This document shows, in pieces, positions 8,102 through 25,312 of a DNA stretch of 32,000 nt. The notes below the pieces were generated by a model, which saw only the letters and a program-made list of their open reading frames with translations, searched no databases and was not told the DNA's origin. This DNA comes from Candidatus Auribacterota bacterium (GTDB lineage Bacteria; Auribacterota; UBA6266): positions 57 to 32,056 of the forward strand of contig JAGLRQ010000040.1 in the NCBI GenBank assembly GCA_023136205.1. Direction: 5' to 3'. Made by a program: the position numbers and the translations under genes. The stretch's first letter is position 1. Each line of letters begins with the position of its first letter.

Positions 8102-8136
8102 TTACGGCACCACGTTTAATGGTGCCGTAACTTTTG
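8102..8136 (+). terminator. Hairpin terminator between glnN and gltB
   Basis: 11-bp perfect stem UUACGGCACCA / UGGUGCCGUAA, 7-nt loop, tail CUUUUG. Only about 28 nt separate it from the gltB start, so read-through is probably needed for gltB expression. Confidence 0.6.
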
Positions 8137-11100: not shown

Positions 11101-12693
11101 AGCACGAGATATACTACTCCGGGTGTGACACTTATTTCACCACCGCCTCATCATGACATATATTCGATTGAAGATCTTGCACAGCTGATTTTTGATCTGA
11201 AAAATGTAAATCCGAGAGCCCGGATAAGTGTAAAACTTGTGTCTGAAATCGGAGTTGGAACTGTCGCGGCAGGCGTCGCGAAAGGACGCGCGGATATGAT
11301 TCTGATCTCCGGCAGTGATGGCGGGACAGGAGCATCTCCGCGAAGCTCAATAATGCACGCGGGCCTTCCGTGGGAACTTGGCCTGTCAGAAACTCATCAA
11401 ACCCTCGTTTTAAATAATCTTCGCAGCAGAGTAGTTTTGCAGACTGACGGACAAATAAGAACCGGAAGGGATGTTGCTATAGCGGCTCTTCTTGGCGCGG
11501 AGGAGTATGGAATTTGTTCTGCCTGTCTGGTTATTCTTGGTTGTGTGATGTTAAGACATTGCCATTTAAATAACTGTTCTATGGGTGTAGCCACTCAAGA
11601 TCCTATTTTACGGAGCAGGTTTCGCGGAAGGCCGGAATACATTGTTACCTATATGAACTTTGTTGCCCAGGAACTTCGCGAGATCATGGCTTCTCTTGGA
11701 ATAAGAAACCTGGACGACATGATTGGCCGGACGGATTTATTGGAAGTAAACAAAGATATAATTCCATGGAAAGCTTCACAGATTGATTTTTCAAATATTC
11801 TGTATAAACCTGATATTAAAGAGGGAGTAGGTACGTTTTGTAAAAAAAGGCAAAATCATGGTATTGATAATGTTCTTGATCGCAGGCTTATCAAACTGGC
11901 GCGCAGAAGTTTGTTGAACAGGGAACAGATACGCGAAGAGATTAGCATTTGCAATACTGATAGATCTACCGGAGCAATGTTGAGTGGGGAAATTTGCAGG
12001 ATTTACGGCGAAGAAGGTTTCCCGAACGACACTATTTATTTTAAATTCACTGGTGTGGCAGGCCAGAGTTTCGGAGCCTGGCTTACAAAGGGTGTTACTT
12101 TTGAACTGGAAGGTATAACCAATGATTACGTAGGCAAAGGTATTTCAGGAGGGAAGATAATTATTTATCCGGATAGACGTTCTAAATACAAGGCTCACGA
12201 AAATATTATAGTAGGCAATACAAGTTTTTATGGAGCTATAAGCGGTGAGGCATACATAAGAGGTATCGCCGGTGAAAGATTTTGCGTTAGGAATTCGGGA
12301 GTTAATGCTGTTGTTGAGGGTGTTGGGGATCACGGCTGTGAATACATGACGGGTGGGAGAATTGTGATATTGGGAAAAACCGGTAGAAATTTTGCCGCGG
12401 GCATGTCGGGGGGTATCGCGTATGTATTTGATGAAGACAACATGATTGAAAGTAGATGCAATATAAATATGGTTAACATTGATGTGGTTGATGATGAGGA
12501 TGAGGCAGCGATACATGAACTTGTTCATAATCATTATAAATATACTCAAAGCGAAAAGGCAAAAATGATTTTGGGGGATTTTAAGAAGAGTTTGAAAAGT
12601 TTCGTTAAGGTAATTCCCGTTGAGTATAAGCGGATTTTGGAAACTAAAAAAACAGATGAAAAATTGGGGTTAACAGAGATATCCGATGGGTGA
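8164..12693 (+). CDS. gltB: Glutamate synthase large subunit
   Basis: About 1509 aa. Has the N-terminal Ntn amidotransferase Cys (EHDSCGVGFV), FMN/Fe-S central and GXGXG C-terminal domains (GAMSFGSIS, SNTGEGGE, LISPPPHHDIYSIEDL, GGTGASP). The start could alternatively be TTG at 8158. Confidence 0.95.
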   Translation: MEENQFFKKQGLYDPRFEHDSCGVGFVCNVKGEKTHEIIVQGLKVLKRLSHRGATGSDPETGDGAGILIQIPHDFFAGECGEIKIDLPPPGKYGTGLIFLPVDKKERIFCKKLFSKAVEELGQKVLGWREVPVSESVIGKTAKEIRPVIEQIFISRNENIKDTLDFERKLYLIRKHVENVIRSSKLKQKAFFYITNISCRTFIYKGLLMPSQLERFFPDLGNEKLASSLCIVHSRYSTNTFPSWDLSQPFRFLAHNGEINTLRGNVNWMRAKEGLLNSSYFGEDVEKIKPVIVPGGSDSAALDNVLELLVLSGRSLPHAMMMLIPSAWEQDAFMDEKLRAFYQYHACLMEPWDGPAAIAFTDGTCLGAFLDRNGLRPARYIITKNDLLVMASEVGVLDIDPGDIKVSGRLEPGKMLYVDTEKKKVVDNKELKEEISLGKPYDSWLKKNMARIEDLPEPIYNKSGNKDVIPLLKAFGYTREDLKFIIKPMAENGGEAIGSMGNDTPHAVLSKRPQLVYNYFKQLFAQVTNPPIDPIREELVMSLECYMGTRRNLLDETPLHCGKLKLKHPILSNADLEKIRKINQKGFCSKTISILFKAKDESSFQEALERICLEAAAAIEGNNTFIILSDRGVNKDYAAIPALIAVGAVHQYLVKQGSRSQIALIVESGEPRDVHHFSLLFAFGAGCVNPYMAFDSVEYMIREGMLDTEIEMANKNYINALKKGILKILSKMGISTLRSYRGAQIFEALGLNKEIIEKCFTGTVSRIEGAGMEVIAKETLIRHRDAYCVRGENSNLLPAGGVYQWKKDGEFHLWNPESIAALQDAAKHDDYDKYEEFSCLINDQSNNPATLRSLWKFKKVNPVAIDEVESIHNIFGRFVTGAMSFGSISKDAHESIALAMNRIGGKSNTGEGGEDPSRFVSLRSGHSKRSAIKQVASGRFGVSTNYLVNADEVQIKIAQGAKPGEGGQLPGHKVSVTIASTRYTTPGVTLISPPPHHDIYSIEDLAQLIFDLKNVNPRARISVKLVSEIGVGTVAAGVAKGRADMILISGSDGGTGASPRSSIMHAGLPWELGLSETHQTLVLNNLRSRVVLQTDGQIRTGRDVAIAALLGAEEYGICSACLVILGCVMLRHCHLNNCSMGVATQDPILRSRFRGRPEYIVTYMNFVAQELREIMASLGIRNLDDMIGRTDLLEVNKDIIPWKASQIDFSNILYKPDIKEGVGTFCKKRQNHGIDNVLDRRLIKLARRSLLNREQIREEISICNTDRSTGAMLSGEICRIYGEEGFPNDTIYFKFTGVAGQSFGAWLTKGVTFELEGITNDYVGKGISGGKIIIYPDRRSKYKAHENIIVGNTSFYGAISGEAYIRGIAGERFCVRNSGVNAVVEGVGDHGCEYMTGGRIVILGKTGRNFAAGMSGGIAYVFDEDNMIESRCNINMVNIDVVDDEDEAAIHELVHNHYKYTQSEKAKMILGDFKKSLKSFVKVIPVEYKRILETKKTDEKLGLTEISDG

Positions 12694-14107
12694 TCCAAAA
12701 GGGTTTTTAAAAGTTAAACGGCAGGCTTCAGATTTCAGGCCTGTCTGTGAACGTGTTAAAGATTATAAGGAGGTATTTCAAATACCCTCCGATAAGAAAT
12801 CGATGGAACAGGCATCCCGCTGTATGGATTGCGGGACCCCTTTTTGTAATTGGGGTTGTCCTGTCGGAAACTATATCCCGGAATGGAATGATTTTATGTT
12901 CCACGGACATTGGGAAAAGGCATATAGACTTCTTGACGCGATGAACAATTTGCCGGAAATAACCGGGAGAGTTTGCCCGGCCGCGTGTGAATACGCGTGT
13001 GTGCTGGGAGCAAATGATGATCCGGTAACTGTAAGGGAAAACGAGCTTGCGATTATTGAGTATGCTTTTAAAAAAGGATTTGTAAAACATAGAGTATGCG
13101 GATCCAGAACCGGTAAAAGAATTGCTGTTGTGGGTTCAGGCCCGGCAGGAATCTCGAGCGCGGATCAACTTAACAGATATGGCCATAGTGTTGTCGTTTT
13201 TGAAAAAGCTGAAAAGATAGGGGGTATACTAAGATATGGAATTCCTGATTTTAAGCTTGAAAAGTGGATTTTAGACAGACGTATAAACATCTTAAAAAAA
13301 GAAGGAATTAAGTTTATTACCGGTGTTAATGTTGGAATTGATTATGGAGTTCCTAAGCTGCTTAAAGAATTTGATGCTGTTTGTCTTGCCGGTGGTTCCC
13401 GGGTTCCCAGAGATTTAAAGATAGAAGGAAGGGGCCTAAAAGGCATTCATTTCGCGATGGATTATTTGACACAGCAGAATAAAAGGGTTTCAGGGGAAAA
13501 CTTTTCGGAAGATTTAATAGATGCAAAGGGTAGAAAGGTAGTTGTTATTGGCGGCGGGGATACCGGTTCGGATTGTGTTGGAACGGCACATAGGCAGGGA
13601 GCAAATTGTGTTGTTCAGATAGAGATTATGCCAAAGCCGGAGGGGTGCCGTACTGATGACTACCCCTGGCCGTCTTATCCAATGATATTAAAAACGTCCA
13701 CCAGCCATGAAGAAGGGGGAGAAAGGTATTGGTCTCTATTAACTAAAAATTTTACAGGTAAAAATGGCAGGGTTAGCAAGATTATATGCAAGAAGGTTGA
13801 ATTCTCTAAGGCCGATAAAAAAGGCTGTTCATTAATGAAAGAAATACCGGACAGCGAGTTTGAAATTGATGCCGGCCTTGTAATAATTGCCGCGGGTTTC
13901 TTACATGCTTCTCATGGCGGGCTGGTTGATAATCTGGGTGTTGAAAAAGATGAGCGTGGAAATGTAAAAACCAATGAAAATTTTATGACTTCCATAAAAA
14001 ATGTTTTTTCTGCCGGCGATATGAGAAGGGGCCAGTCTCTTGTTGTATGGGCTATTAATGAAGGCAGAAGATGCGCGGAAGCAATTGATAAATTTCTTTT
14101 AGGGTAA
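12686..14107 (+). CDS. gltD: Glutamate synthase small subunit (NAD(P)H-dependent)
   Basis: ATG overlaps the gltB stop (ATGGGTGA). Has the Fe-S Cys clusters (CMDCGTPFC, CPVGN, CPAACEYAC) and dinucleotide folds (VAVVGSGPAG, VVVIGGGDTGSDC). Confidence 0.9.
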   Translation: MGDPKGFLKVKRQASDFRPVCERVKDYKEVFQIPSDKKSMEQASRCMDCGTPFCNWGCPVGNYIPEWNDFMFHGHWEKAYRLLDAMNNLPEITGRVCPAACEYACVLGANDDPVTVRENELAIIEYAFKKGFVKHRVCGSRTGKRIAVVGSGPAGISSADQLNRYGHSVVVFEKAEKIGGILRYGIPDFKLEKWILDRRINILKKEGIKFITGVNVGIDYGVPKLLKEFDAVCLAGGSRVPRDLKIEGRGLKGIHFAMDYLTQQNKRVSGENFSEDLIDAKGRKVVVIGGGDTGSDCVGTAHRQGANCVVQIEIMPKPEGCRTDDYPWPSYPMILKTSTSHEEGGERYWSLLTKNFTGKNGRVSKIICKKVEFSKADKKGCSLMKEIPDSEFEIDAGLVIIAAGFLHASHGGLVDNLGVEKDERGNVKTNENFMTSIKNVFSAGDMRRGQSLVVWAINEGRRCAEAIDKFLLG

Positions 14108-14118: not shown

Positions 14119-16734
14119 ATGGATGAGAACTTTAGTACAGGACTTCCGGATTTGGATAGTATTTTACGGGGGATATGTCCGGGTGATAATGTCGTTTTCC
14201 AGGTAGATACTGTAGGGGATTATATTCCATTTGTCCATCCTTTCTGCGAAAAGGCTCATATGCAGGGCCGGGATCTAATTTATTTTCGCTTTGCCGATCA
14301 CGAGTATCTTATTCCTAAGGGTGTTTCTGCTCATGTTTATGAAATTCATCCGGAGGCCGGCTTTGAAAAATTTATTGCCGAAATTTTTGATGTTATTGAA
14401 AAATTCGGTTATGGCGCCTGTTATGTTTTTGATTCTCTTTCCGAGCTTGCGGTTGACTGGTACAGTGACCGTATGCTGGGAAACTTCTTTATGCTTACGT
14501 GTCCTTATCTATATACCTTTGATACGGTCGCGTATTTCGGGCTTTTAAGGAATCATCATTCTTCATATGCCGTTGATGCCATACACAGCACCGCGCAGGT
14601 GGTTCTTGATATTTATCGTAGAAAAAGCGAATTTTATGTCTATCCTCTTAAAGTATATGAGCGGCATTCTAAAACAATGTATATGCCTCATAAGTGGGAT
14701 GGTGACAGGTTTATTCCGGAAGTAAGGAGCGCGGCAATCGCGGAGATACTCGGGTCAGTTTCCCACCCGTGGCTTGATTTTACGATAAACCGTTATGATA
14801 TCTGGGCCCGAAGCTTTACAGAAGCGCAGGAGATTGTTGACTCGGGCGCTAACGAAAAGCCGAAAGACTCGAGACAAAAAACCCTGTTTAGCCGCCTTAT
14901 CCGAATGGTGGTTTCAAGAGACCCGCGGGTTCTGTCTCTTATAGAGAAATATTTTAACCTGAAAGATGTGGTTAATATAGGAAAACGGATGATAGGTACA
15001 GGCCTGATCGGCGGCAAATCTCTCGGGATGCTGCTTGCGCGGTCTATAGTGAAGAATCAAGATAAAGATTTACATGACAAACTTGAATATCACGATTCGT
15101 TTTTTATCGGGTCGGATGTATTTTATACGTATATTATTGAAAACGGCTGCTGGTGGGCAAGGCGCGGAATAAAAAGAGAGGGTACATCCTTTAATGGGTT
15201 TATGGAAGTCAGACAACGTATGCTTTCCGGTAAGTTCCCGGACTACATTAAAAATCAATTTATTGAGATGCTCGATTATTTTGGGCAGTCTCCCATTATA
15301 GTCAGGTCTTCAAGCCTTCTTGAGGATGCGTATGGAAACGCTTTTTCCGGAAAGTACGAGAGTGTTTTTTGCGCGAATCAGGGAACACCCGAAGAACGTC
15401 TGGAGAAATTTATAGAAGCTGTTAGAATAGTCTATACGAGCACAATGAGCAAAGAGGCGATAGCTTACCGGGCGCGCTGGAACCTGCTGGATCGAGATGA
15501 ACAAATGGCTATTTTAGTACAGAGGGTTTCTGGCTCTATATATGGGGATCAGTATTTTCCTCAGGTTGCGGGTGTTGGGTTTTCATTTAATCCCTATGTA
15601 TGGAGCAATGAAATTAAACCGGAAGAAGGAATGATCCGTCTGGTTTTTGGTTTGGGGACCCGGGCTGTTGACAGAAGCGGCGATGATTATACACGGCTGG
15701 TGGCTTTAAATTCGCCGGACAGACGCCCGGAAGGAAGCCTTGCGGATGTTAGAAAATACTCTCAGCATCGTGTGGATGTTCTTGACTTACATGATAACCG
15801 TTATGTAACGAAAGATTTTGAGGAGGTAGTGCGGGGAGCTCCTGAATTTGACCCTAAGATGTTTGCTTCCCGCGATAAGGAAGTTGAAAGGAAAGCCAGA
15901 GAATACGGAACAAAAAATGTGTTCTCATGGGTTTTGACTTTTGACGAGCTTTTATCAGGCACAGGGTTTGTCGGGGATATGGGGAAAATGCTTAAGATTC
16001 TTCAAAAAGCTTATAATCATCCCGTGGATGTGGAATTCACGGCGAATTTTCTGGACGGTTGGCAGGATTATAATATAAACCTGCTTCAATGCAGGCCGTT
16101 TCAGATAAAAGGAAATCTGCGGAAAGTCAAGGCCCCGGTATCTATAAAGGACGAGCAGGTATTGCTGAAAACAAGAGGGCCGATTATCGGCAGCAGTATT
16201 TCTACGACAGTTGACAGAATTATTTATGTTGTTCCTGAAGTTTATAGTAAAATGAAGATAACAGACAGATATTCCGTTGCTCGTTTAATCGGACGAATTA
16301 CCCATCTCAAAGACAAGGGGAAAATACCCAAAATTATGCTTATCGGCCCGGGGAGGTGGGGAACCACCACGCCTTCTTTAGGTGTGCCCGTTTCATTTGC
16401 GGAGATAGATACCGTTTCTGTTATATGTGAAGTCGCGGCTATGGATGAAAACCTGATTCCGGATATATCTCTGGGAACGCATTTTTTTAATGACCTTGTT
16501 GAGGTAGATATGTTATATCTTGCTGTTTTTCCGGATAAAAAAGACAGCGCGATAAACAGATGTTTTTTTAATAACACTAAAAATAAGCTGGCTTCTTTGA
16601 TACCTGTTGAAAAATTATTTTCTCAGGCTGTAAAAGTAATAGATTCCGACAGTATTGAATCAGGCCGGCCGATGTGCCTGAACGCGGATGTCCTTGAACA
16701 AAAAGGAATCTGCTATCTAGATGTTAAAAAATAA
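14119..16734 (+). CDS. PEP/pyruvate-binding (PPDK_N ATP-grasp) domain protein with a degenerate KaiC/RecA-like N-terminal domain
   Basis: Starts 11 nt after gltD. The N-terminus GLPDLDSILRGICPGDNVVF...YVFDSLSEL resembles KaiC/RadA-like ATPases but lacks a GKT/S Walker A. The centre (IIVRSSSLLEDAYGNAFSGKYESVF, AILVQR, GVGFSFNP, VFGLGTRAVD) matches the nucleotide-binding domain of pyruvate-phosphate/water dikinases. No phospho-His swivel motif was seen. Confidence 0.7.
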   Translation: MDENFSTGLPDLDSILRGICPGDNVVFQVDTVGDYIPFVHPFCEKAHMQGRDLIYFRFADHEYLIPKGVSAHVYEIHPEAGFEKFIAEIFDVIEKFGYGACYVFDSLSELAVDWYSDRMLGNFFMLTCPYLYTFDTVAYFGLLRNHHSSYAVDAIHSTAQVVLDIYRRKSEFYVYPLKVYERHSKTMYMPHKWDGDRFIPEVRSAAIAEILGSVSHPWLDFTINRYDIWARSFTEAQEIVDSGANEKPKDSRQKTLFSRLIRMVVSRDPRVLSLIEKYFNLKDVVNIGKRMIGTGLIGGKSLGMLLARSIVKNQDKDLHDKLEYHDSFFIGSDVFYTYIIENGCWWARRGIKREGTSFNGFMEVRQRMLSGKFPDYIKNQFIEMLDYFGQSPIIVRSSSLLEDAYGNAFSGKYESVFCANQGTPEERLEKFIEAVRIVYTSTMSKEAIAYRARWNLLDRDEQMAILVQRVSGSIYGDQYFPQVAGVGFSFNPYVWSNEIKPEEGMIRLVFGLGTRAVDRSGDDYTRLVALNSPDRRPEGSLADVRKYSQHRVDVLDLHDNRYVTKDFEEVVRGAPEFDPKMFASRDKEVERKAREYGTKNVFSWVLTFDELLSGTGFVGDMGKMLKILQKAYNHPVDVEFTANFLDGWQDYNINLLQCRPFQIKGNLRKVKAPVSIKDEQVLLKTRGPIIGSSISTTVDRIIYVVPEVYSKMKITDRYSVARLIGRITHLKDKGKIPKIMLIGPGRWGTTTPSLGVPVSFAEIDTVSVICEVAAMDENLIPDISLGTHFFNDLVEVDMLYLAVFPDKKDSAINRCFFNNTKNKLASLIPVEKLFSQAVKVIDSDSIESGRPMCLNADVLEQKGICYLDVKK

Positions 16735-16752: not shown

Positions 16753-17460
16753 ATGAAAGAAAATGAGAAACAGCTTGAAGCCCTGTTTAAAATAAGCAAG
16801 GCGATTGCTTCAGATAATTATCTTGAAGACATTCTTAAACTTATAGTCGCGGTTACCGCCCAGGTGATGAACTCAAATATATGTACTTTAATGCTTATTG
16901 ACGAGCGAAAGAAAGAGCTTACAATACGGGCAACCCAGAGCGTAAGTGATGAATATAATAAAAAACCCCCAATTAAAATAGGCGAAGGGATTTCAGGCAA
17001 GGTCGCGAAAGAAAACAAGCCAATTTCAGTAAAAGATGTCGGTTTGGAAAAAGAATACAAATATCATGATATGGCTAAAAATGAGGGTTTAAAGTCTCTG
17101 CTTTGTGTGCCTCTTACGGTTAAGGGAAAGGTTATAGGCGTTATAAATTGTTATACTCCGGTCCCTCATGAATTTTCTTACGGCGAAATCAATATCCTCA
17201 AGACTATAGCCCATCAGGCCGCTGTCGCGATTGAAAACACCGAACTTATGGTAAAAACTAGGGTTATACAGGAAGAGCTTGAATCAAGAAAAAGAATCGA
17301 AAGAGCAAAGGGCATGTTGATGGAAGAAGAAAAATTGACAGAGCAGGAAGCCTATAACAAGATACAAAAGTTTGCCATGGATAACCGCAAAACCATGAAG
17401 GAAATAGCGGAAGCGATGATTCTGGCATATGATATGAGGCAGGGAAAAAAGAAAAAATAA
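16753..17460 (+). CDS. GAF-ANTAR RNA-binding transcription antiterminator
   Basis: Starts 18 nt after the upstream gene. GAF domain at about residues 10-165 (GEGISGKVA, LCVPL..GKVIGVINCY, AHQAAVAIEN). C-terminal ANTAR helices: LESRKRIERAKGMLMEEEKLTEQEAYNKIQKFAMDNRKTMKEIAEAMI. Confidence 0.85.
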   Translation: MKENEKQLEALFKISKAIASDNYLEDILKLIVAVTAQVMNSNICTLMLIDERKKELTIRATQSVSDEYNKKPPIKIGEGISGKVAKENKPISVKDVGLEKEYKYHDMAKNEGLKSLLCVPLTVKGKVIGVINCYTPVPHEFSYGEINILKTIAHQAAVAIENTELMVKTRVIQEELESRKRIERAKGMLMEEEKLTEQEAYNKIQKFAMDNRKTMKEIAEAMILAYDMRQGKKKK

Positions 17461-17520
17461 AATTGGACGCAGAGAACGCAGAGAAAAAACATAAAGTAGA
17501 TTTTAAAAACCTCATTTTTT

Positions 17521-17550
17521 AACCACAAATGAACACAAATCGACACAAAT
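17521..17550 (-). repeat. 30-nt tri-decamer repeat (ACACAAATNN x3), left island boundary copy
   Basis: The reverse complement ATTTGTGTCGATTTGTGTTCATTTGTGGTT matches 27397-27426 at 26 of 30 positions. The adjacent GACGCAGAGAACGCAGAGAA (17466-17485) is also internally repetitive. Confidence 0.6.
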
Positions 17551-17567
17551 TAAAAACAATAGAGAAA

Positions 17568-17595
17568 TAAGAAAAGGGAGTTGACCCCCTTTTCC
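17568..17595 (+). repeat. Hairpin-forming direct repeat, copy A (TAAGAAAAGGGAGTTGACCCCCTTTTCC)
   Basis: Identical to 19632-19658 apart from one extra C. GAAAAGGG pairs with CCCTTTTC as an 8-bp stem. Confidence 0.7.
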
Positions 17596-17623
17596 ACCCC
17601 CTTTTTCCAGACCCCCTTTTCCA
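17585..17623 (+). repeat. Tandem repeat CCCCCTTTTCCA x3 (middle unit expanded)
   Basis: Units lie at 17585-17596, 17597-17611 and 17612-17623, read directly from the sequence. Confidence 0.6.
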
Positions 17624-17865
17624 TCTGTATAGCTCCGTATTGATTCATTGATAGTGTAGTTGTTCAACAAACAGTTGTGAAAAAGCCAAATAAAAGATAA
17701 GATAAATTTTATACTAATAGTTGGTTTGCACAAAATACAAAACTTTGCTAACGTAAGACAGGAAGGTCTTTAGATGTAGGCTTATTCCAGAGCTTTATTA
17801 TGTATTTATTTTATTACTATCTTTAATGTACGTTATTTGGGGCGGCTCATTAAAAGGAGGTCTAT

Positions 17866-18144
17866 ATGGAAAAAAAACGGAAGTTCGATCTGAACGAAAT
17901 TAAAGCTCTCTTGCAGGAAAACGGATATACTATTGCTAGTGGCCTTAACCTAAGCTATAACACGGCGACTGAAAGTTGTGGTTCTTATTGCACCGGAGGC
18001 TGTAGAGGAGGCTGCTATACATGTAGTACTGGAACTTCTAAGAAAACAACGCAAGTAGTTCAACCTGCTATTCAAATTAGTAGAGAAAACATACTTGATA
18101 ATATCTTAACAATAACAAATGCACCAGCAGTTCGAAAGAAGTAG
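17866..18144 (+). CDS. Candidate RiPP precursor peptide with a central Cys ladder
   Basis: Strong SD AAGGAGG 6 nt before the ATG. 92 aa with five Cys, all in ESCGSYCTGGCRGGCYTCSTGTS (CX3CX3CX3CX2C), in a Gly/Ser/Thr-rich core. Charged helical N-terminal region. Lies 62 nt upstream of a radical SAM/SPASM gene. Confidence 0.6.
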   Translation: MEKKRKFDLNEIKALLQENGYTIASGLNLSYNTATESCGSYCTGGCRGGCYTCSTGTSKKTTQVVQPAIQISRENILDNILTITNAPAVRKK

Positions 18145-18206
18145 AGTTGCTTCTTACTGGTTAAAAGAGATCTGCCGCCCCGAAATTAAATATCAGGAGA
18201 ATTATA

Positions 18207-19634
18207 ATGAGATATCAACTGCACCACGATATCGGCATGAGATGTGATGTTGATAGAAATATCATTTATGTAAAAAATCCTGTTGAATCTGAATTGAGTG
18301 ATTTTCTGCAGACAATTAATTCTGAATTGGCTGTCTTCCTCGGACTGATGGATGGTTCTATGGAGATAGACGATGTCGTCCGGAACTGGAGCGAACTATT
18401 TTTCGGTACTAAACCTGACCGTGAGATTGGGAAGGTGCTTCAAGCTATGTTGAAGAGTAAACTCGGCCCGGATCTTCAGGTTCACCAAATATTGAACAAG
18501 GTGGATTCAAAGACATTAGGAAGAAGAGACCTCCCCGAAATAAGCACTCTTATTGTTCCCAAAGAAATCGAAAATATTGACGACCCGAGGCTCAGAATAC
18601 CTCTCCAGATGCTCTTTATGCCAACGTTGGATTGTACCCAGAAGTGTTCCTACTGCTATAGCACGGAATCATATTCGGATAATATAAAGGCCCTTGAATT
18701 CAAGAGAATACAGGAAATAATGGAAGAGGCGAAAAGGCTTGGTATGCACACAATAGATCTTTCCGGAGGAGAACCCGTTAGCTATAGACATTTCTTTCCT
18801 CTTCTGGAGAAGCTGTTTGAACTGGGGTTGGAGGTTAATTTGCCTACCAAATATCCACTCTCGAGAGAGGATGTAAAAAGGCTTAAAGCTATTGGCTTGA
18901 AAACGATACAAATAAGCATAGATGCCCTAACCCCAAAGGTTATAGATAAAGTTGTAGGCCTAAAAGGCTATGGACTAAAGATACTTAAGACACTCGATTA
19001 CTTAGAAGAAGCGGCGATAGGCGTAAGAACGAACACGGTCATAACATCATATACACTCGAAGAAGTAGAGCCCCTTATGCGCTTTTTAGCAACAAAAAAG
19101 AATATATACCGTGTAACTCAGTCACCCTATTCTATTTCCAGGTTTAAACACAAAAGCAAATTTCCAATCAGTAATGAAGAGTATAAAGTTATACTCGAGG
19201 CATCAGAAAAGATATTTGAATCGAGGCCCGATATAAGTTTTAATCCAGGAGATGTATTCGAACCCTACGAAAAAGTTTCCGTTATCGAACGGGAGAAGAG
19301 CTGGGACGAGAGGTCTTTTTGTAGTGGCGGCAGGCAAAATTTTGCTCTCCTGCCCGATGGCAAAGTTACCATGTGTGAAGAGCTGTACTATCAGCGTCAC
19401 TATATTATGGGTGACCTTACGGAGCAGTCGATCATGGAGATGTGGAATTCTCCAGAGGCAAAAAGCATATCCTATCCGCCGAAAGAACTATTTCCCGATG
19501 GGCCATGCAGAGATTGTAAAGACCTTGCTGCATGTCACTATTCTCCCGGAAGGTGCGTTAGAGAGGCTATTAAGCACTTCGGAGAAGATAAACATTATTA
19601 TCCAGATCCTAGGTGTCCTAAGGCTCCTGTTTAA
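18207..19634 (+). CDS. Radical SAM/SPASM peptide-modifying enzyme with an N-terminal RRE (PqqD-like) domain
   Basis: SD AGGAG upstream. CX3CX2C cluster CTQKCSYC plus SGGEP. The C-terminal SPASM-like cysteines are CSGG...DGKVTMC (GX4C) and CRDCKDLAACHYSPGRC, with a final C in RCPKAP. The first ~100 aa (IIYVKNP...INSELAVFLGLMDGSMEIDDVVRNW) look like a PqqD-type RiPP recognition element. Confidence 0.9.
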   Translation: MRYQLHHDIGMRCDVDRNIIYVKNPVESELSDFLQTINSELAVFLGLMDGSMEIDDVVRNWSELFFGTKPDREIGKVLQAMLKSKLGPDLQVHQILNKVDSKTLGRRDLPEISTLIVPKEIENIDDPRLRIPLQMLFMPTLDCTQKCSYCYSTESYSDNIKALEFKRIQEIMEEAKRLGMHTIDLSGGEPVSYRHFFPLLEKLFELGLEVNLPTKYPLSREDVKRLKAIGLKTIQISIDALTPKVIDKVVGLKGYGLKILKTLDYLEEAAIGVRTNTVITSYTLEEVEPLMRFLATKKNIYRVTQSPYSISRFKHKSKFPISNEEYKVILEASEKIFESRPDISFNPGDVFEPYEKVSVIEREKSWDERSFCSGGRQNFALLPDGKVTMCEELYYQRHYIMGDLTEQSIMEMWNSPEAKSISYPPKELFPDGPCRDCKDLAACHYSPGRCVREAIKHFGEDKHYYPDPRCPKAPV

Positions 19635-19658
19635 GAAAAGGGAGTTGACCCCTTTTCC
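19632..19658 (+). repeat. Hairpin-forming direct repeat, copy B (TAAGAAAAGGGAGTTGACCCCTTTTCC)
   Basis: Begins with the stop codon of the radical SAM gene. Matches copy A at 17568-17595. May also act as a terminator hairpin. Confidence 0.7.
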
Positions 19659-19680
19659 TTTCCTTTTCCTTTTCCTTTTC
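19651..19680 (+). repeat. Tandem CCTTTT-type microsatellite (about 5 units)
   Basis: CCTTTTCCTTTCCTTTTCCTTTTCCTTTTC read directly, immediately after hairpin copy B. Confidence 0.6.
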
Positions 19681-19792
19681 ATTAGAGAACCGGCAAAATA
19701 CACCCCCCCAATTTATACTCCCCGGAACAACAAACCCGGAAATAGGAACGGCTTGAAAGGTTATATGGGAAACACAAGGTAGTTGTATGTTT

Positions 19793-19845
19793 TGTTCAAA
19801 TATATTGCTTGTTCATTAATAATGAACATTAGAATAAATTGAACA
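19793..19845. promoter_or_regulatory. Nested-palindrome operator unit 1 (TGTTCA-N11-TGTTCA-N7-TGAACA-N11-TGAACA)
   Basis: Half-sites start at 19793, 19810, 19823 and 19840. The centre TGTTCATTAATAATGAACA is a perfect 19-nt palindrome. Confidence 0.5.
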
Positions 19846-19877
19846 ATTCTGGGATATGGTGAAATAATAACTATCAT

Positions 19878-19938
19878 TTGACTTTTGTTCAAAAATAAGA
19901 TATGTTCACAATAGATGAACATATCAATTATTTGAACA
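19878..19938. promoter_or_regulatory. Promoter (TTGACT-17-TATGTT) overlapped by nested-palindrome operator unit 2
   Basis: -35 TTGACT at 19878-19883 and -10 TATGTT at 19901-19906. Half-sites start at 19886, 19903, 19916 and 19933, with the same 11/7/11 spacing as unit 1. The downstream gene starts at 19953. Confidence 0.5.
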
Positions 19939-19952
19939 GATTGAGGTGATAT

Positions 19953-20999
19953 ATGATTGACAAATATACAGAAAATGAAGTTTTTCAAGCTGCCTTGGCT
20001 GCCTTTAGAAAAAATCTAGATAGGCCAGTTGACTTTATCGTTGACAATGCTGCAGAGCAATATTTGGACCAAAATGTAAGAGTGGATAGAACACTGCAGA
20101 TAAACCTCGATGGCAAAGAAATTCGCTTTTGTGTTGAGATAAAAACAAACATCAATACAGCAACAATTGGTCAATTGTTGAATCTAAAAAATCAGCTTCC
20201 TTATCCACTTATGCTTGTTACAAATTATACTAGAGAACATATTGCAAATCAATTAAGGCAGAATGGAATAGAATTCATTGATACAGCTGGAAATGCTTAT
20301 ATTAATCGGCCTCCCGTTTATATTTTTGTAATAGGAAATAAACCTCCTGAAGCTTTTATACAGGTTCCGGTTAAACAAGCTTTTAGGCCCACAGGCCTTA
20401 GAGTGGTTTTCGCTTTCCTATGCGATCCAAATTTAGTAAATAAAACATATCGTGAGATTGCTGATACTGCAGGTGTTGCTCTTGGAAATATTGGATGGAT
20501 AATGCGTGATTTAAGAAATTTTGGTTTTCTCTTAGAGATGGGAAAACATAAGTTTAAATTGGTCCAAAAAGAACAACTTTTAAATCGATGGGTTGTTGGA
20601 TATCAAGAAAAATTAAGGCCAAAACTGTTAATAGGCCGTTTTGAGGGTGTCTTAGGTTGGTGGAAACAAAAAAATCTTAATTATAAGCATGCTCAATGGG
20701 GCGGGGAAGTTGCTGCTGCTAGATTAACGAAATATTTAAAACCACAGAATATTATTATCTATGTAAAACAAAATTATCTCAAAGATTTAGTAATAGCAAA
20801 TAGATTAAAAAAAGATATCCATGGTGAAACAGAAATTTTCAAATGTTTTTGGAAACAAATTGGGCAAAATGAATTTCAAGATATTGTACATCCAATTCTT
20901 GTTTACGCGGATCTTATGGCAACAGGTGACCGGAGAAACATTGAAACGGCAAGGATGATTTATGAACAACATATTTTCCGATATATCAAAGAAGATTGA
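19953..20999 (+). CDS. AbiEi-like wHTH regulator/antitoxin candidate, possibly with an N-terminal nuclease-like fold
   Basis: 348 aa. Central wHTH-like segment NKTYREIADTAGVALGNIGWIMRDLRNFGFL. C-terminal VYADLMATGDRRNIETARMIYEQ resembles AbiEi-family C-termini. The N-terminal D..x9..EIK (LDGKEIRFCVEIK) is compatible with PD-(D/E)xK. Assigned from recalled motifs only, without a search. Confidence 0.45.
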   Translation: MIDKYTENEVFQAALAAFRKNLDRPVDFIVDNAAEQYLDQNVRVDRTLQINLDGKEIRFCVEIKTNINTATIGQLLNLKNQLPYPLMLVTNYTREHIANQLRQNGIEFIDTAGNAYINRPPVYIFVIGNKPPEAFIQVPVKQAFRPTGLRVVFAFLCDPNLVNKTYREIADTAGVALGNIGWIMRDLRNFGFLLEMGKHKFKLVQKEQLLNRWVVGYQEKLRPKLLIGRFEGVLGWWKQKNLNYKHAQWGGEVAAARLTKYLKPQNIIIYVKQNYLKDLVIANRLKKDIHGETEIFKCFWKQIGQNEFQDIVHPILVYADLMATGDRRNIETARMIYEQHIFRYIKED

Positions 21000-21813
21000 G
21001 CCATCTTTTGCTGATGCCCTTTCTGAAGTAAAAAAGATTGCGGATGATTTAAGCATTCCTTTTTTCCTTATTGGAGCAAAAGCAAGGGATTGTATACTTG
21101 AGTACCATTATGATATTAGATCCCCTCGAGTTACTGAAGACATAGATATAGCTGTGCTGGTACCAGATTGGGAGAAATACAAAACCTTAACAGATGCCTT
21201 GCTTGCCACCAGTAAATTTTCTAAAGAAAAGCAAAAACAAAGATATGCTTACAATGATACCCTTATTGACATAGTTCCCTTTGGCCCTATTTCCGGCAAG
21301 AATAAAGAAGTAAAATGGCCTCCGGAATGTGAAGTCATTATGAGTACTTTTGGCTTTGAGGAAATCTACAAACATGCTATTACCCTTAGACTTCGTGATA
21401 ACCCGATACTTGATGTAAAAATGCCCACGATTCCAGGGCTGGCAATAATGAAATTAATATCATGGAGTGAAAGAAATTCCCCCGAACGGCAAAAAGATGC
21501 AAAAGATTTATTATTCATTATGAAAAACTATGAAGATGCTGGAATTGAATCTCGTTTATATGAAAAAGAGAGTTCGTTACTCGAGGAAGAAGGGTTTGAT
21601 AACCAGCTGGCAGGAATTAGGCTTCTTGGGCGTGATATGGCAAAAATATCTAACGCTGATACTTTAGAAAAAATTAAAGAAATTTTATCTAATGAAACTG
21701 GCGATCAAACACAATACGAATTAATATCCAATATGCTTGGCATATCGGGCAGTTTTGAAGAAACATTAATGCAATTAGAAAAATTGGAGCAGGGCGTTTC
21801 AGAGGTTTTATAA
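20962..21813 (+). CDS. Pol-beta-superfamily nucleotidyltransferase, AbiEii-like toxin candidate
   Basis: Overlaps the upstream gene by 38 nt. The motif IGAKARD...SPRVTEDIDIAV fits the G[SA]-x(n)-DxD NTase signature and the R-x-[ST]-x-DID pattern of AbiEii/AbiGii. Confidence 0.5.
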   Translation: MNNIFSDISKKIEPSFADALSEVKKIADDLSIPFFLIGAKARDCILEYHYDIRSPRVTEDIDIAVLVPDWEKYKTLTDALLATSKFSKEKQKQRYAYNDTLIDIVPFGPISGKNKEVKWPPECEVIMSTFGFEEIYKHAITLRLRDNPILDVKMPTIPGLAIMKLISWSERNSPERQKDAKDLLFIMKNYEDAGIESRLYEKESSLLEEEGFDNQLAGIRLLGRDMAKISNADTLEKIKEILSNETGDQTQYELISNMLGISGSFEETLMQLEKLEQGVSEVL

Positions 21814-21878
21814 AAAGGCTATGGAAGTATGACTAGAAACGAAACCCCAAGATGTTTCTATAAAATGAGTTATGTGTT

Positions 21879-22040
21879 ATGAACAACAAAAACCCCGGAC
21901 TCATAGAACGATTTTTCACCTGGTTATTCGCACCGGTGAATGATATTGTTGAAGATACAACTGATTTAATAGCTGAGAAAGTAAGTAAGAAAATTAAGGA
22001 AGATAAGTTGCAGGAAGAAGGGGATGTGGGAAGCGAATAG
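21879..22040 (+). CDS. Short ORF, 53 aa, unknown function (below the ORF-track cutoff)
   Basis: ATG to TAG, MNNKNPGLIERFFTWLFAPVNDIVEDTTDLIAEKVSKKIKEDKLQEEGDVGSE. No clear SD. May be non-coding. Confidence 0.2.
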   Translation: MNNKNPGLIERFFTWLFAPVNDIVEDTTDLIAEKVSKKIKEDKLQEEGDVGSE

Positions 22041-22094
22041 GAAATAGGTGTCTGTCCCTAATTTTTTAATTTTTTCTACTAATTTTTTCTACTA

Positions 22095-22184
22095 CGCAAA
22101 AGAAAATCATGCGGTCATGTATGGCAGGGGAGGCCAAGTAAGAAAAGATAGAAACCGGCAGAAAAAGGCGCTGTCCCCTTTACC
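22095..22184 (+). repeat. 90-bp direct repeat, copy 1 (contains a RAYT/IS200-like transposase remnant)
   Basis: Matches 22476-22565 with a single mismatch (GGCC vs GACC). One frame reads RKRKSCGHVWQGRPSKKR*, resembling the GH[LV]WQGR[FY] motif of COG1943-type transposases. Confidence 0.8.
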
Positions 22185-22299
22185 CTTTCAAGAAAATACT
22201 GAAAGAGCAGGGTGAGATTTTCTTTCGTGCTATCACATCAAAAAAGGAGAAACAATTTTTAATCGGCGGAGGGTGGAAGTGGTTGTAGGGAAAAAGGGT

Positions 22300-22319
22300 A
22301 ATTAAGTGTTGTGTCACCC
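22300..22319 (+). repeat. Short dispersed repeat AATTAAGTGTTGTGTCACCC
   Basis: Related to 22362-22380 and to the reverse complement of 24243-24261. Embedded in a GGTAAT...ATTACC hairpin. Confidence 0.5.
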
Positions 22320-22361
22320 GATTACCTGCGAAAAAATAAACCGGGACCTAGTCGGAAAGAT

Positions 22362-22388
22362 AGTTAAGTGTTCTGTCCCCGGAATTGC
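22362..22388 (+). repeat. 27-nt repeat, left inverted copy (AGTTAAGTGTTCTGTCCCCGGAATTGC)
   Basis: Matches the reverse complement of 24235-24261 at 21 of 27 positions. Confidence 0.5.
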
Positions 22389-22475
22389 GGAATTGCCCTT
22401 GGAACTCCAAACGATAAAGAATCTTTTTCAAAGGCATTCAATATCCTTGCTATGAGGTACTCGCAGTATATAAAC

Positions 22476-22565
22476 CGCAAAAGAAAATCATGCGGTCATG
22501 TATGGCAGGGGAGACCAAGTAAGAAAAGATAGAAACCGGCAGAAAAAGGCGCTGTCCCCTTTACC
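22476..22565 (+). repeat. 90-bp direct repeat, copy 2
   Basis: See copy 1. Starts 381 bp downstream of it. Confidence 0.8.
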
Positions 22566-22588
22566 TTTACCTTTACCTTTACCTTTAC
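22559..22588 (+). repeat. Tandem hexamer CTTTAC x5
   Basis: Read directly. Copy 1 of the 90-bp repeat has only one such unit at the same position. Confidence 0.7.
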
Positions 22589-22651
22589 CGGAATTTTTAA
22601 AAACGCGATTAATTTTATTGTAAGTTAATCGTCAAGATGATGTGAGTCGGT

Positions 22652-24232
22652 ATGTCAAATAAGAATAAAAAGCAAAAACGTTTTTCATCAATAAACAAGC
22701 ATAAACGTGATGGGCGGATGCTTCGTTCTATGCCTGCCGATATGAAAGTTGACCTAATTGATTGGGAGCGAGATTTGATGCCGGAGCATATTTGGATAGA
22801 TTTGCTCGCTGAGGAATATAAAGATAAGCCATGGCACAAAATTTATGAACATTTTTTAGATGAATTGGATGCTGTTGGAAAAGGTATCCATTTGTTTGGA
22901 TTGATTTCAGATTTTGGTCTAATCCCTGAAGATGCCCGCAAAAAATTCGCATTATCAAAACAGGAGTTGATTTACGAGGCATTTTATAAACCCATCGGTG
23001 GCATTTTAAGCTTATATCCAGATAGCCCTGCAAGTTGGATGATTCTTGATGAGCACAAACAGGCTGATAATATAAACTTTGAGACTGAACTCGCAAGGTT
23101 GGCTAATTCCCTCAAAAGACTTATTAAGGCAAAAGATTTATATGCCGGACATATACGGATGATGCCATTTACAAGAGCAATAAAACATGGATTGGTTAAG
23201 ATACCCCTTGACGAAAAGGAGATCGATATGCTTACACGATACCCTACCGGATGCAGTGAGGAGGAGCGGTATTCTATACAACAGCATGCAAGGGTAATAA
23301 TGAATAGCCAGTATATGATAAACGACATATATCAGAAGAAGGTGTGGCCGAAATATTTTTGGAGACATAATTATAACTTAGTGCCTTGCCATCCCGTAAA
23401 AAAGTCATTGGATAGTGGTGATGATATTGATGTGGGGAAAATGAAATCTTTGCAAGAGCGAATTTGGACAAACTGTATAAGAATGATGAAATATCTTGAT
23501 AAAATTGCTCAGCAGTATAAATACGATTTATTCGATCCGTTTAAGGATGAAATATTACTTGGACTTTTTTCAAGAGTTGTTCGCTTGTATATATCATTTG
23601 CCGCGAATCCGTTTTTATGGAATCGAGATCTCTCTGGGCTCATGTTGCGGTGCATCGGTGAAACAACTATATTGTTCTTTTATTTTGCGAATAAGGCCAC
23701 TGATGAAGAATTTAGAAATTTTAAGAATTACTCTCAAGGGAAAGATAAATTGTTGATGCTTCATTTACAAGATACGTTGTTATACGGCAAGTCTTTAGAT
23801 GGTAAGAATATTGATCAGATCGCCCAAGATATTGGTGGAGGTTTGATAGCAGAAATGATGCCAATTGATTTAAAAGGATGGACTACAAAAAACATTCGTG
23901 ATTTAGCATTGGAAACTGGATTAGAGCGAATTTATCGATGGGTTATAGATCCATGTAGCTCTGAATTGCACGGATCATGGTCTAGTCTGCAGAAGTCTAA
24001 TCTTGTTATTTGTGCCCAGATATTGCATCGTTTTCATAAGGTTCCGAAATTTTTCGAACCTCCTATAAGATTATTAACCCTATATGTTGCCAAAGAGATT
24101 TACTTACAGGCAAAGGAAAATGGCGTAAATAAACTTGGATTTCCAGAGCCTAATGAGACCTTGGATGAAATAGAGGAAATAAAAGCAGCCTATGACAAAG
24201 TGGTTAAAGATTATCAAGAGACAAATGTGTGA
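22652..24232 (+). CDS. Hypothetical protein, 526 aa, no recognisable family
   Basis: Long uninterrupted ORF with a basic N-terminus (MSNKNKKQKRFSSINKHKRDGR). Predicted mostly helical, and no catalytic motif was recognised with any certainty. Confidence 0.6.
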   Translation: MSNKNKKQKRFSSINKHKRDGRMLRSMPADMKVDLIDWERDLMPEHIWIDLLAEEYKDKPWHKIYEHFLDELDAVGKGIHLFGLISDFGLIPEDARKKFALSKQELIYEAFYKPIGGILSLYPDSPASWMILDEHKQADNINFETELARLANSLKRLIKAKDLYAGHIRMMPFTRAIKHGLVKIPLDEKEIDMLTRYPTGCSEEERYSIQQHARVIMNSQYMINDIYQKKVWPKYFWRHNYNLVPCHPVKKSLDSGDDIDVGKMKSLQERIWTNCIRMMKYLDKIAQQYKYDLFDPFKDEILLGLFSRVVRLYISFAANPFLWNRDLSGLMLRCIGETTILFFYFANKATDEEFRNFKNYSQGKDKLLMLHLQDTLLYGKSLDGKNIDQIAQDIGGGLIAEMMPIDLKGWTTKNIRDLALETGLERIYRWVIDPCSSELHGSWSSLQKSNLVICAQILHRFHKVPKFFEPPIRLLTLYVAKEIYLQAKENGVNKLGFPEPNETLDEIEEIKAAYDKVVKDYQETNV

Positions 24233-24234
24233 TC

Positions 24235-24261
24235 GCAGTTTCGGGGACACGATACTTAATT
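24235..24261 (-). repeat. 27-nt repeat, right inverted copy
   Basis: GCAGTTTCGGGGACACGATACTTAATT begins 3 nt after the stop codon of the 526-aa gene. It is the inverted partner of 22362-22388. Confidence 0.5.
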
Positions 24262-24371
24262 GCCCAATAGAGATTAGCCGGGATAATTAGTGACACTTTC
24301 CATATTATTGAAAGATTTCCTTACTCTCCTTCCTATTGTAACCACTTTTCTTCCATGCTAAAATACCTATC

Positions 24372-25253: not shown

Positions 25254-25312
25254 AAAGATTGAAATGGAGGTTCAAATTATTTTTCTTATTGAGCGTGTCG
25301 TCAATAAATTAA

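Follow-up and report, generated by a model that had tools for sequence, protein, structure and literature searches.

We analyzed a 32,000-nt stretch of DNA from a Candidatus Auribacterota bacterium (GenBank assembly GCA_023136205.1, contig JAGLRQ010000040.1), the whole of which we refer to as the window, and find that the gene at 16753-17460 is likely to encode a one-component, signal-responsive antiterminator of nitrogen assimilation genes, including those of its own operon. This protein, referred to here as the regulator, consists of a GAF sensor domain fused to an ANTAR RNA-binding domain. Computation established the domains of the regulator, the RNA architecture of leaders that precede nitrogen genes in the window, the conservation and covariation of such leaders in relatives, and their co-occurrence with the regulator. 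An earlier reading of the window, made before any database search (the sequence-only reading), had called the regulator a candidate master regulator, a title that it may deserve. Loci from relatives are cited below by our own locus numbers (L001 and so on).

The regulator is a GAF-ANTAR protein

The regulator gene and the parts of its product are as follows:

16753-17460, + strand: GAF-ANTAR regulator gene, 235 aa, ATG start (from the open reading frame list)
Regulator protein, residues ~1-140: GAF domain (AlphaFold2 model)
Regulator protein, residues 143-193: long linker helix (AlphaFold2 model)
Regulator protein, to residue 234: ANTAR helices (AlphaFold2 model)

A Pfam domain search places GAF_2 at residues 24-161 (expect value, E, of 1.1e-22; the Pfam GAF family also matches, E 6.9e-21) and ANTAR (PF03861) at residues 172-223 (E 7e-19; 67.8 bits vs a cut-off of 27.3; profile positions 3-54 of 54). 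These matches above the cut-offs bear out the prediction that a GAF sensor fused to an ANTAR domain is encoded by the last gene of the operon. The same Pfam search returned no Response_reg match for the regulator, its N-terminus being GAF instead, and no NIT or AmiR_N match. In the AlphaFold2 model, with an overall predicted local distance difference test score (pLDDT) of 85, a GAF domain is followed by a long, continuous helix (143-193), and two further helices (197-210 and 215-234) make up the rest of the three-helix ANTAR bundle, this region having a pLDDT of ~90. In this model, helix 143-193 is the predicted dimerising helix that the ANTAR family layout requires ahead of the bundle.

The ANTAR part of the regulator has PDB sequence matches to Rv1626, EutV, NasR, and AmiR, and to 4akk and 1qo0 (NasR/AmiR types) only this part of the regulator aligns. 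In EutV, residues R142, K143, E160, Y164, M172, and R175 bind the flipped G4 and plug the hexaloop of the target RNA (PMC8934654). Aligning the ANTAR part of the regulator to EutV (PDB 6wsh) allowed us to map the hexaloop-contact residues:

EutV R142, regulator R179: identical
EutV K143, regulator K180: identical
EutV K147, regulator R184: conservative
EutV E160, regulator E197: identical
EutV Y164, regulator Y201: identical
EutV M172, regulator M209: identical
EutV N173, regulator D210: conservative
EutV R175, regulator R212: identical
EutV R177, regulator T214: different

Residues R179, K180, E197, Y201, M209, and R212 are invariant in an alignment of 29 orthologues. The regulator thus shows each of the features of the ANTAR domain family that we looked for, and would work like GnfR (receiver domain, REC), NasR (NIT), and AmiR (pseudo-REC), while lying outside the subtypes that they represent.

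Leaders of nitrogen genes in the window

An ANTAR target RNA is defined by two hairpins with A1/G4 hexaloops, the second of which overlaps a terminator (Ramesh et al. 2012, PMC3369931; Walshe et al. 2022, PMC8934654). We identified the following elements upstream of glnN, gdhA, and amtB, where P1 and P2 are the first and second hairpin of a leader, and R2 is a covariance model described below:

5803-5831, + strand: putative sigma-70-like promoter of the glnN operon as read from the sequence, TTGACA 5803-5808, 17-nt spacer, TAAAAA 5826-5831
5852-5867, + strand: glnN leader P1, GGUAC-AAAGUU-GUACC, hexaloop A1/G4
5882-5893, + strand: glnN leader P2, AAC-AAAGGC-GUU, putative antiterminator, overlaps the terminator 5′ arm
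5885-5927, + strand: glnN leader intrinsic terminator, two-part stem and U7 run (RNAfold minimum free energy fold; -13 kcal/mol in the descriptor scan)
31544-31561, + strand: gdhA leader P1, UCGCAC-AAUGGU-GUGCGG, hexaloop A1/G4
31580-31591, + strand: gdhA leader P2, GAC-AAAGGU-GUC, inside the terminator 5′ arm
31578-31621, + strand: gdhA leader intrinsic terminator (stem 31578-31615), ~16 bp, -21.7 kcal/mol, U6 run, z -5.2
3586-3646, + strand: amtB attenuator 1, candidate (R2 E 0.32)
3586-3604, + strand: P1 of amtB attenuator 1, AAGUAC-AGAGAUU-GUGCUU
3613-3624, + strand: P2 of amtB attenuator 1, UGC-AAUGGG-GCG, weak, 3-bp
3619-3640, + strand: terminator of amtB attenuator 1, weak, with U run
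3740-3818, + strand: amtB attenuator 2, divergent, assignment uncertain (R2 E 0.18, only P1 matched)
3740-3758, + strand: P1 of amtB attenuator 2, AAGCAC-GUUGUUG-GUGCUU
3762-3779, + strand: P2 of amtB attenuator 2, UUGAGC-UCAGGU-GCUCAA, overlaps the terminator
3771-3812, + strand: terminator of amtB attenuator 2, strong, with U6 run, z -5.3

In the glnN and gdhA leaders, where P1 and P2 are separated by linkers of 14 nt and 18 nt, respectively, all four loops have an A at position 1 and a G at position 4, and P2 and the terminator 5′ arm share bases, which makes the two folds mutually exclusive, as was likewise seen in related loci. Both leaders therefore show the tested features of canonical ANTAR target RNAs. 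Since the two covariance models that we built (R1 and R2, see below) perform poorly on the gdhA leader, we wrote a generic descriptor scan with shuffles, which required 4 bp or more and a loop of 6-7 nt in P1, 3 bp or more and a hexaloop in P2, an A1 and a G4 in each loop, and an overlapping terminator. On both strands of the window, this descriptor found exactly two sites, those upstream of glnN and gdhA, vs a mean of 0.43 in 40 dinucleotide shuffles, and the core ACAAAGGYGT occurs twice in the window vs 0.13 expected. The proposal in the sequence-only reading that ANTAR-type targets precede these two genes is thereby confirmed. The glnN leader also scores 41.5 bits (E 3e-8) with R2 and E about 1e-5 to 7e-5 with R1. 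Assignment of the gdhA leader rests on the generic descriptor and on conservation in three genomes, with its architecture kept in two other Auribacterota genomes (L001 and L094) and with a compensatory A-U to G-C change in P1. There was no relevant Rfam match, either in the whole window at the gathering threshold or in the glnN and gdhA leaders at E<=10, and the motif fits no curated Rfam family.

The two tandem attenuators upstream of amtB are candidates only for ANTAR targets. In attenuator 1, the loops have A1 and G4 and are hexaloops in part (AGAGAUU, AAUGGG). The target ahead of amtB-glnK had been described as divergent, which is a fair description of two attenuators with an R2 E of 0.32 and 0.18, the second without A1. 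Leaders of the same type precede amtB in L009 (E 5e-7) and L031.

The glnN operon and autoregulation

The regulator gene and the genes behind these leaders are arranged in the window as follows (genes identified with Pfam):

3825-5198, + strand: amtB
5280-5621, + strand: glnK
5972-8080, + strand: glnN, type III glutamine synthetase
8158 or 8165 to 12693, + strand: gltB
12686-14107, + strand: gltD
14119-16734, + strand: PPDK_N-only gene, 871-aa product
31687-32000, + strand: 5′ part of gdhA, TTG start, ribosome-binding site AGAGGAGGA, runs off the window end

The regulator gene is the last of a co-oriented series, glnN-gltB-gltD-PPDK_N-regulator, and the same order is present in L001. This series had been described as tightly packed, which holds for the gltB/gltD (-8 nt), gltD/PPDK_N (11 nt), and PPDK_N/regulator (18 nt) junctions but not for the glnN-gltB junction, where there is a spacer of 77-84 nt; for gltB, an ATG start at 8165 is more likely than the listed TTG at 8158. 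Within the spacer, at 8102-8130, is a hairpin of 11 bp (TTACGGCACCA...TGGTGCCGTAA) whose U tail is weak; acting as a partial terminator or by stabilising the mRNA, this hairpin may set the glnN:gltBD ratio and restrict read-through into the regulator. Over its first ~100 codons, the window gdhA is 73% identical to the gdhA of L005 (tblastn), and it is divergent from a gene for glutamine-dependent NAD synthetase. A 443-aa open reading frame at 25313-26644 (- strand) was first taken as gdhA and rejected, having no Pfam match and being unrelated. The amtB-glnK pair are putative further members of the regulon.

The regulator gene is thus co-oriented with, and downstream of, the glnN leader, and the leader motif also precedes the regulator gene in relatives, in agreement with the positive autoregulation proposed in the sequence-only reading. 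Since the regulator gene lies downstream of a target leader, and of a leader of its own in most relatives, positive feedback on the regulator is predicted. The presence of the leader motif upstream of both the regulator gene and assimilation genes in relatives indicates that autoregulation is a conserved design.

Conservation of the leaders in relatives

Regulator genes that do not close an operon are preceded by a leader of their own, built in the same way. For example, the L007 regulator leader consists of TTGACA-N17-TATCTT, GGCAC-AAGGUUC-GUGCC, 6 nt, GGAC-AAAGGC-GUUUU, and an overlapping terminator, and the TTGACA-N17 layout found upstream of glnN likewise precedes leaders in L007, L002, and L009. 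A covariance model (R1) built from six regulator leaders of relatives detected another 20 sites with E<0.03 in 850 kb, each of them intergenic, on the strand of the regulator, and upstream of the regulator itself or of assimilation genes; the window glnN leader is among them. R1 was over-fitted and missed the window gdhA leader entirely. The second model (R2), built from these 26 sites (six plus 20), detected 46 sites at E<=1; 45 of these lie on the + strand, and only a single one is not intergenic. These sites precede the regulator (~18 sites), Glu_synthase-domain genes, glnA, gdhA, gltB, amtB, and glnN, and most of them are followed within 7-45 nt by a run of at least five T residues. An independent descriptor applied to the loci of relatives found 44 sites on the + strand vs 5 on the - strand, ahead of the same gene classes.

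In an alignment of the 46 sequences, 94.7% of cells pair, vs 34-51% when partners are slid by 1-3 columns. Compensatory double changes occur in 5 of 9 pairs, and G·U pairs are common. Stem sequences vary freely (GGCAC, GGUAC, GAUAC, UUUC, CAAUAC), unlike the loops, which keep to AA(N)G(G/U)Y. Ten hand-picked leaders were also aligned with MAFFT, but the P1 3′ arms came out misaligned and this alignment was set aside. Attenuators are often in tandem, with two or three per leader (L009 3290-3585, L007 9758-9960, L005 9823-9960, L026 6114-6298, and L039 10727-10836), and some P2 loops in these tandem attenuators are 8 nt (AACGAAGC, ACUGUAGC), not 6. We found no P1 in several second tandem attenuators, e.g., L007 9900-9960 and the L005 gdhA leader, which show a P2-type hairpin only and may be single-hairpin sites.

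Orthologues are embedded in ammonium-assimilation loci

The regulator is identical to a database protein annotated as a GAF and ANTAR domain-containing protein of Candidatus Aureabacteria, now phylum Candidatus Auribacterota, of the PVC group (NCBI). Its best 120 database relatives are 231-263 aa in length and 71-78% identical, and come mostly from Omnitrophota metagenome-assembled genomes (MAGs); orthologues at 50-78% identity are likewise found chiefly in Omnitrophota. The 29 aligned orthologues have a mean column identity of 75%. From genome and metagenome contigs, we gathered ~90 orthologue loci at 48-96% identity. A scan of genome contigs with the single protein gave 8 loci only, the alignment-based metagenome scan being far more productive, and a phmmer search vs 1.8 billion representatives was uninformative, its top being dominated by giant multi-GAF proteins.

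The sequence-only reading had set beforehand, as a condition of its proposal, that orthologues and such leaders should co-occur in related genomes, and this is what we find: the ~90 other loci are embedded in ammonium-assimilation genes. Flanks of 2 kb or more were available at 74 loci, and at 58 of these a recognisable ammonium-assimilation gene lies no more than 3 kb from the regulator orthologue, the classes counted including glnA, gdhA, gltBD, amtB, nadE, and the gene for a Glu_synthase-domain protein. The neighbors are distributed as follows:

~530-aa Glu_synthase-domain protein: 32 loci
glnA: 15 loci
gdhA: 13 loci
nadE: 11 loci
gltD: 8 loci
gltB: 4 loci
amtB: 4 loci
pyrG: 4 loci
carAB: 3 loci

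For example, the gene order is amtB-glnK-gltB-gltD-regulator-GluSynDom-pyrG in L009 and glnA-...-gltB-gltD-regulator-carAB-purSQL-pyrG in L011, and L094, from a second Auribacterota MAG, contains gltBD-regulator ... nadE/gdhA. The commonest neighbor of the regulator, a ~530-aa protein with a Glu_synthase (flavin mononucleotide, FMN) domain only, is usually encoded directly downstream, often with its own ANTAR-type leader, and was seen at L009 10936-12528, in L002, L004, L007, L012, and L014-L019, and in others; it has no NCBIfam match and is absent from the window. In the distant orthologue loci L057, L067, L073, L074, and L088, a ~160-aa stand-alone GAF paralogue is encoded directly upstream of the GAF-ANTAR gene. 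In L012, L015, L019, and L023, there are GAF-ANTAR copies that are in tandem or truncated, with leaders between them.

The GAF domain and its candidate ligand

The best PDB sequence matches of the regulator GAF domain are GAF domains of PtsP (3ci6, E 1.5e-19; 3trc, E 4.2e-17), and its top two NCBIfam matches are PtsP (1.5e-19) and NifA (7.7e-14). In EI-Ntr (PtsP), the GAF domain binds glutamine, which inhibits autophosphorylation, according to a paper that cites Lee 2013 and Goodwin & Gage (PMC4848567). Foldseek ranks 1-3 for the regulator GAF domain are also PtsP (3trc and 3ci6), with template modeling scores of 0.80-0.85 (3trc 0.85) at 23-25% identity. The 2013 work of Lee is said to have found that EI-Ntr also senses 2-oxoglutarate, and that of Little and Dixon in 2003 reportedly showed that the NifA GAF domain binds or senses 2-oxoglutarate. 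Given that PtsP and NifA have the GAF domains nearest to that of the regulator, nitrogen status read as glutamine/2-oxoglutarate is the most likely signal, and we hypothesize, by distant homology only, that glutamine and/or 2-oxoglutarate are the leading ligand candidates.

In the 29 orthologues, R59, Q62, S63, Y68, N69, K71, K75, E78, D95, K100, Y102, and K103 are invariant polar or charged residues of the GAF domain. C44 and C133 are also invariant, and C118 nearly so; from the GAF strand order, C44 and C133 are probably on neighboring strands. These conserved cysteines may serve a redox or metal input, or mere core packing in anaerobes.

Proposed mechanism and alternative explanations

From these features we infer that the regulator binds the leader RNAs, and we propose the following circuit. 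The glnN-gltBD-PPDK_N-regulator operon and gdhA, and probably amtB-glnK, would be transcribed from constitutive sigma-70-type promoters, and transcription would stop by default at the intrinsic terminator in the 5′ leader. An active regulator dimer would clamp the P1 and P2 loops (A-A-N-G-G/U-Y) with its two ANTAR domains, with G4 flipped out as in EutV. P2 is predicted to have only 3-5 bp, with its loop and 3′ arm in common with the terminator 5′ arm, and because of these shared bases its stabilisation would block the terminator and allow RNA polymerase to read through. The N-terminal GAF domain would set the activity of the regulator, with low glutamine or high 2-oxoglutarate leading to the RNA-binding form, a direction of switching that we infer from the content of the regulon.

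Several observations weigh against this interpretation. The window gdhA leader scores 11.2 bits (E 0.75) with R2, a low score that is due to its 18-nt linker. The amtB leaders are weak R2 matches (E 0.18-0.32), and attenuator 2, which shares the architecture of attenuator 1, keeps G4 in both loops but is without A1. The alignment in which covariation was scored was fitted to the covariance model. The hairpin at 8102-8130 after glnN may reduce read-through to the regulator. Co-induction of gdhA with glutamine synthetase (GS) and glutamate synthase (GOGAT) is a little unusual for nitrogen-limitation regulons and leaves the direction of the switch open. With 32 kb of the genome visible, another ANTAR protein could serve these leaders. 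The similarity to PtsP GAF domains is only 23-25% identity and the PtsP glutamine-binding residues are structurally undefined, which makes the ligand a lead. In addition, our literature searches found no characterised GAF-ANTAR protein published since Ramesh et al. 2012 and Goodson 2020.

The alternative that survives best, which we think rather unlikely, accepts that the regulator antiterminates these leaders and holds that its GAF domain binds neither glutamine nor 2-oxoglutarate, responding instead to a partner protein (e.g., PII/GlnK, as with some NifA GAF domains; cf. AmiC-AmiR and NasS-NasT), to a nucleotide second messenger, or to redox. In favor of this alternative, glnK is in the same locus, and a stand-alone GAF paralogue is directly upstream in some distant orthologue loci, but no partner gene is consistently adjacent across the orthologue loci. 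A nucleotide is suggested by the fold ranking, in which the GAF domain of an HD-GYP cyclic di-GMP phosphodiesterase (4mcw) and the cyclic AMP-bound GAF domain of Lcd1 follow PtsP with scores close behind, and by the modulation of NasT, an ANTAR protein, by cyclic di-GMP (PMC10783516); redox is suggested by the conserved C44, C133, and C118. The two best family-level matches, PtsP and NifA, are however both nitrogen-metabolite-sensing GAF domains, and the many invariant polar or charged GAF residues are what a small polar ligand would predict.

We regard it as improbable that the leaders are served by another factor, such as a REC-ANTAR protein encoded elsewhere or a riboswitch, with the GAF-ANTAR gene a passenger in nitrogen loci that has other targets. 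Only 32 kb of this genome can be seen, and REC-ANTAR proteins serve very similar leaders in Firmicutes and Geobacter. Against this, the leader motif lies directly upstream of the GAF-ANTAR gene in ~18 independent loci and adjoins it in many more, no REC-ANTAR gene is present in the full gene lists of five loci (L009, L011, L012, L013, and L094), there is no Rfam riboswitch match, and a P2 of 3-5 bp is too weak to outcompete the terminator unaided. Still less probable is that the regulator binds the leaders and acts chiefly on translation or mRNA stability, like mycobacterial ANTAR targets: a few related sites without a U run lie near a start codon (e.g., L009 711-805 and L015 1133-1177), but both strong leaders in the window have canonical U6-U7 terminators located 45-70 nt upstream of well-separated ribosome-binding sites, and the T run described above follows most related sites.

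That P1 and P2 are palindromic DNA operators of a dimeric transcription factor, or sigma-54-like promoter elements, is scarcely credible: P1 (GGCAC-N7-GUGCC) is also a DNA palindrome and superficially resembles the TGGCAC of a sigma-54 -24 element, but we reject this explanation because the stem sequence is free to vary while pairing is kept and the loops are conserved, G·U pairs are frequent (20 of 46 sequences have G·U at alignment pair 76-94), 45 of 46 sites are on the coding strand, and the elements follow TTGACA-N17-TAxxxT promoters and overlap with terminators, with no TTGC -12 element at the right spacing.

Comparison with known systems

ANTAR control of nitrogen genes has precedent, as the sequence-only reading had stated. 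In Geobacter, GnfR-dependent antitermination of nif, glnK, and amtB has been shown (Ueki & Lovley 2010, PMC2995071), and in many bacteria ANTAR leaders have been predicted upstream of genes for PII, amt, and glutamine and glutamate synthase (Ramesh et al. 2012, PMC3369931). Like the regulator as proposed here, GnfR of the GnfK/GnfR system of Geobacter sulfurreducens is an antiterminator of the ANTAR type that acts on nitrogen genes, among them amtB and glnK. Moreover, the terminators of GnfR target leaders are preceded and overlapped by a conserved CAGGCAANGGCGCC, which reads GGC-AANGGC-GCC, with the AANGGC hexaloop the same as that of P2 here. The two differ in that GnfR has a kinase-phosphorylated receiver as input in place of a GAF domain, and in that it controls nif genes under a sigma-54/GnfLM cascade, with gdhA regulated there at the promoter and in the opposite direction (PMC2995071). 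By contrast, the predicted targets of the regulator described here are the genes for GS, GOGAT, glutamate dehydrogenase (GDH), and the ammonium transporter (Amt), behind sigma-70-like promoters, and the regulator would be autoregulated through its own leader.

Among the regulons predicted by Ramesh et al. 2012 (PMC3369931) are operons of Alkaliphilus, Carboxydothermus, and Desulforudis that combine glnA with an ANTAR-regulator gene, and a Desulfotomaculum glutamate-synthase regulon. They resemble the present system in their dual A1/G4 hexaloops with P2 overlapping the terminator, in the presence of the regulator gene inside the regulated operon, and in their gene classes, i.e., glutamine/glutamate synthase, "glutamate synthase-like protein", PII, and amt. 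Unlike the regulator described here, those of Carboxydothermus and Desulforudis, which are named as response regulators, are REC-type, while that of Alkaliphilus is listed as an "ANTAR regulatory protein"; the regulons are from cultured Firmicutes and Proteobacteria rather than Auribacterota and Omnitrophota, and the P1 loops here are often 7 nt. EutV, a REC-ANTAR protein of Enterococcus faecalis, shares with the regulator the ANTAR fold, the six G4/loop-contact residues, and dual-hexaloop targets, and differs in its sensor domain, its ethanolamine-use regulon, and its activation by phosphorylation-induced dimerisation (PMC8934654).

The only one-component ANTAR proteins that reviews list as characterised are NasR (NIT-ANTAR) and PAL (PAS-LOV-ANTAR). 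Both have a sensor domain joined to ANTAR by a helix, as the regulator does, and NasR also antiterminates a nitrogen pathway (PMC7496416). They differ in having a NIT or LOV sensor in place of GAF, which responds to nitrate or light, respectively, where the regulator probably responds to general nitrogen status. The closest sequence and fold relatives of the regulator GAF domain, those of PtsP (EI-Ntr) and NifA, likewise read cellular nitrogen status, at ~23-25% identity, but their outputs are a phosphoenolpyruvate-dependent phosphotransferase and a sigma-54 AAA+ activator, respectively, and not an RNA-binding domain. No GAF-ANTAR protein had been characterised according to Ramesh et al. 2012 (PMC3369931), who say the same of PAS-ANTAR, and to Goodson 2020 (PMC7496416).

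The sequence-only reading had considered the circuit uncharacterised. This stands for the one-component GAF input and for the lineage, but not for the type of circuit, which is not new because ANTAR regulons of this kind were predicted in 2012 (PMC3369931) and GnfR was shown experimentally (PMC2995071). What is new here is only the one-component GAF-ANTAR input and the lineage, uncultivated phyla of the PVC group.

Other features of the window

The PPDK_N protein has PPDK_N at residues 296-675 as its only Pfam domain, and its N-terminal ~290 aa resemble, as judged by eye, a degenerate KaiC/RecA-like domain. Its gene is within the glnN-gltBD-regulator operon in the window and L001, is in the gdhA/nadE neighborhood in L094, and is also near the regulator in L033, L049, and L085, a recurrent link to the regulon.

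Directly after the regulator gene is a ~10-kb segment (17461-27489) that is missing from the 94%-identical L001, where ~107 nt are found instead. It is flanked by 36-nt imperfect inverted repeats (17520-17555 and 27392-27427, 86% complementary) and contains a Cys-rich 92-aa open reading frame (17866-18144) adjoining a radical SAM/SPASM enzyme (18207-19634), which looks like a pair of the type that makes ribosomally synthesized and post-translationally modified peptides. The segment also holds an AbiEi/AbiEii toxin-antitoxin pair (19953-21813), a DUF5677 protein, a class-3 lipase, and the Pfam-less 443-aa open reading frame, and looks like a mobile or defence island inserted just behind the regulator gene. 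In all three Auribacterota genomes (window, L001, and L094), the regulator and nadE/gdhA are separated by an oxidative-stress cluster (27476-29769, - strand, in the window), which includes an Ogg-type glycosylase, a rubrerythrin-like open reading frame, and a flavin reductase-rubredoxin fusion, to which L094 adds a flavodiiron protein, prismane, and Rrf2.

Implications

The known principle of ANTAR antitermination is unchanged by these findings, and ANTAR control of nitrogen genes will be no surprise to specialists. GAF-ANTAR is nevertheless among the common ANTAR architectures, and the locus described here and its ~90 relatives provide an RNA target with a covariance model, a regulon of ammonium-assimilation genes with autoregulation, and a ligand hypothesis. 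The regulator is short, at 235 aa, and highly conserved, with a mean column identity of ~75%, and the system could therefore be rebuilt in vitro despite its uncultivated hosts. If confirmed, it would provide a compact switch from metabolite to RNA that may be useful in synthetic biology, and would show how Omnitrophota and Auribacterota sense nitrogen status. We tentatively propose, at somewhat less than even chances, that the GAF-ANTAR family is the principal nitrogen regulator of these two phyla, reading glutamine and/or 2-oxoglutarate directly through a PtsP/NifA-like GAF domain and antiterminating a self-amplifying regulon of GS, GOGAT, GDH, Amt, PII, and Glu_synthase-domain genes without a kinase, a PII relay, or a DNA-binding factor. 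If this is true, the regulator would be the first GAF-ANTAR protein with an assigned ligand and regulon, and would stand in for NtrBC, GlnR, or NtcA at the RNA level in two phyla that are uncultivated.

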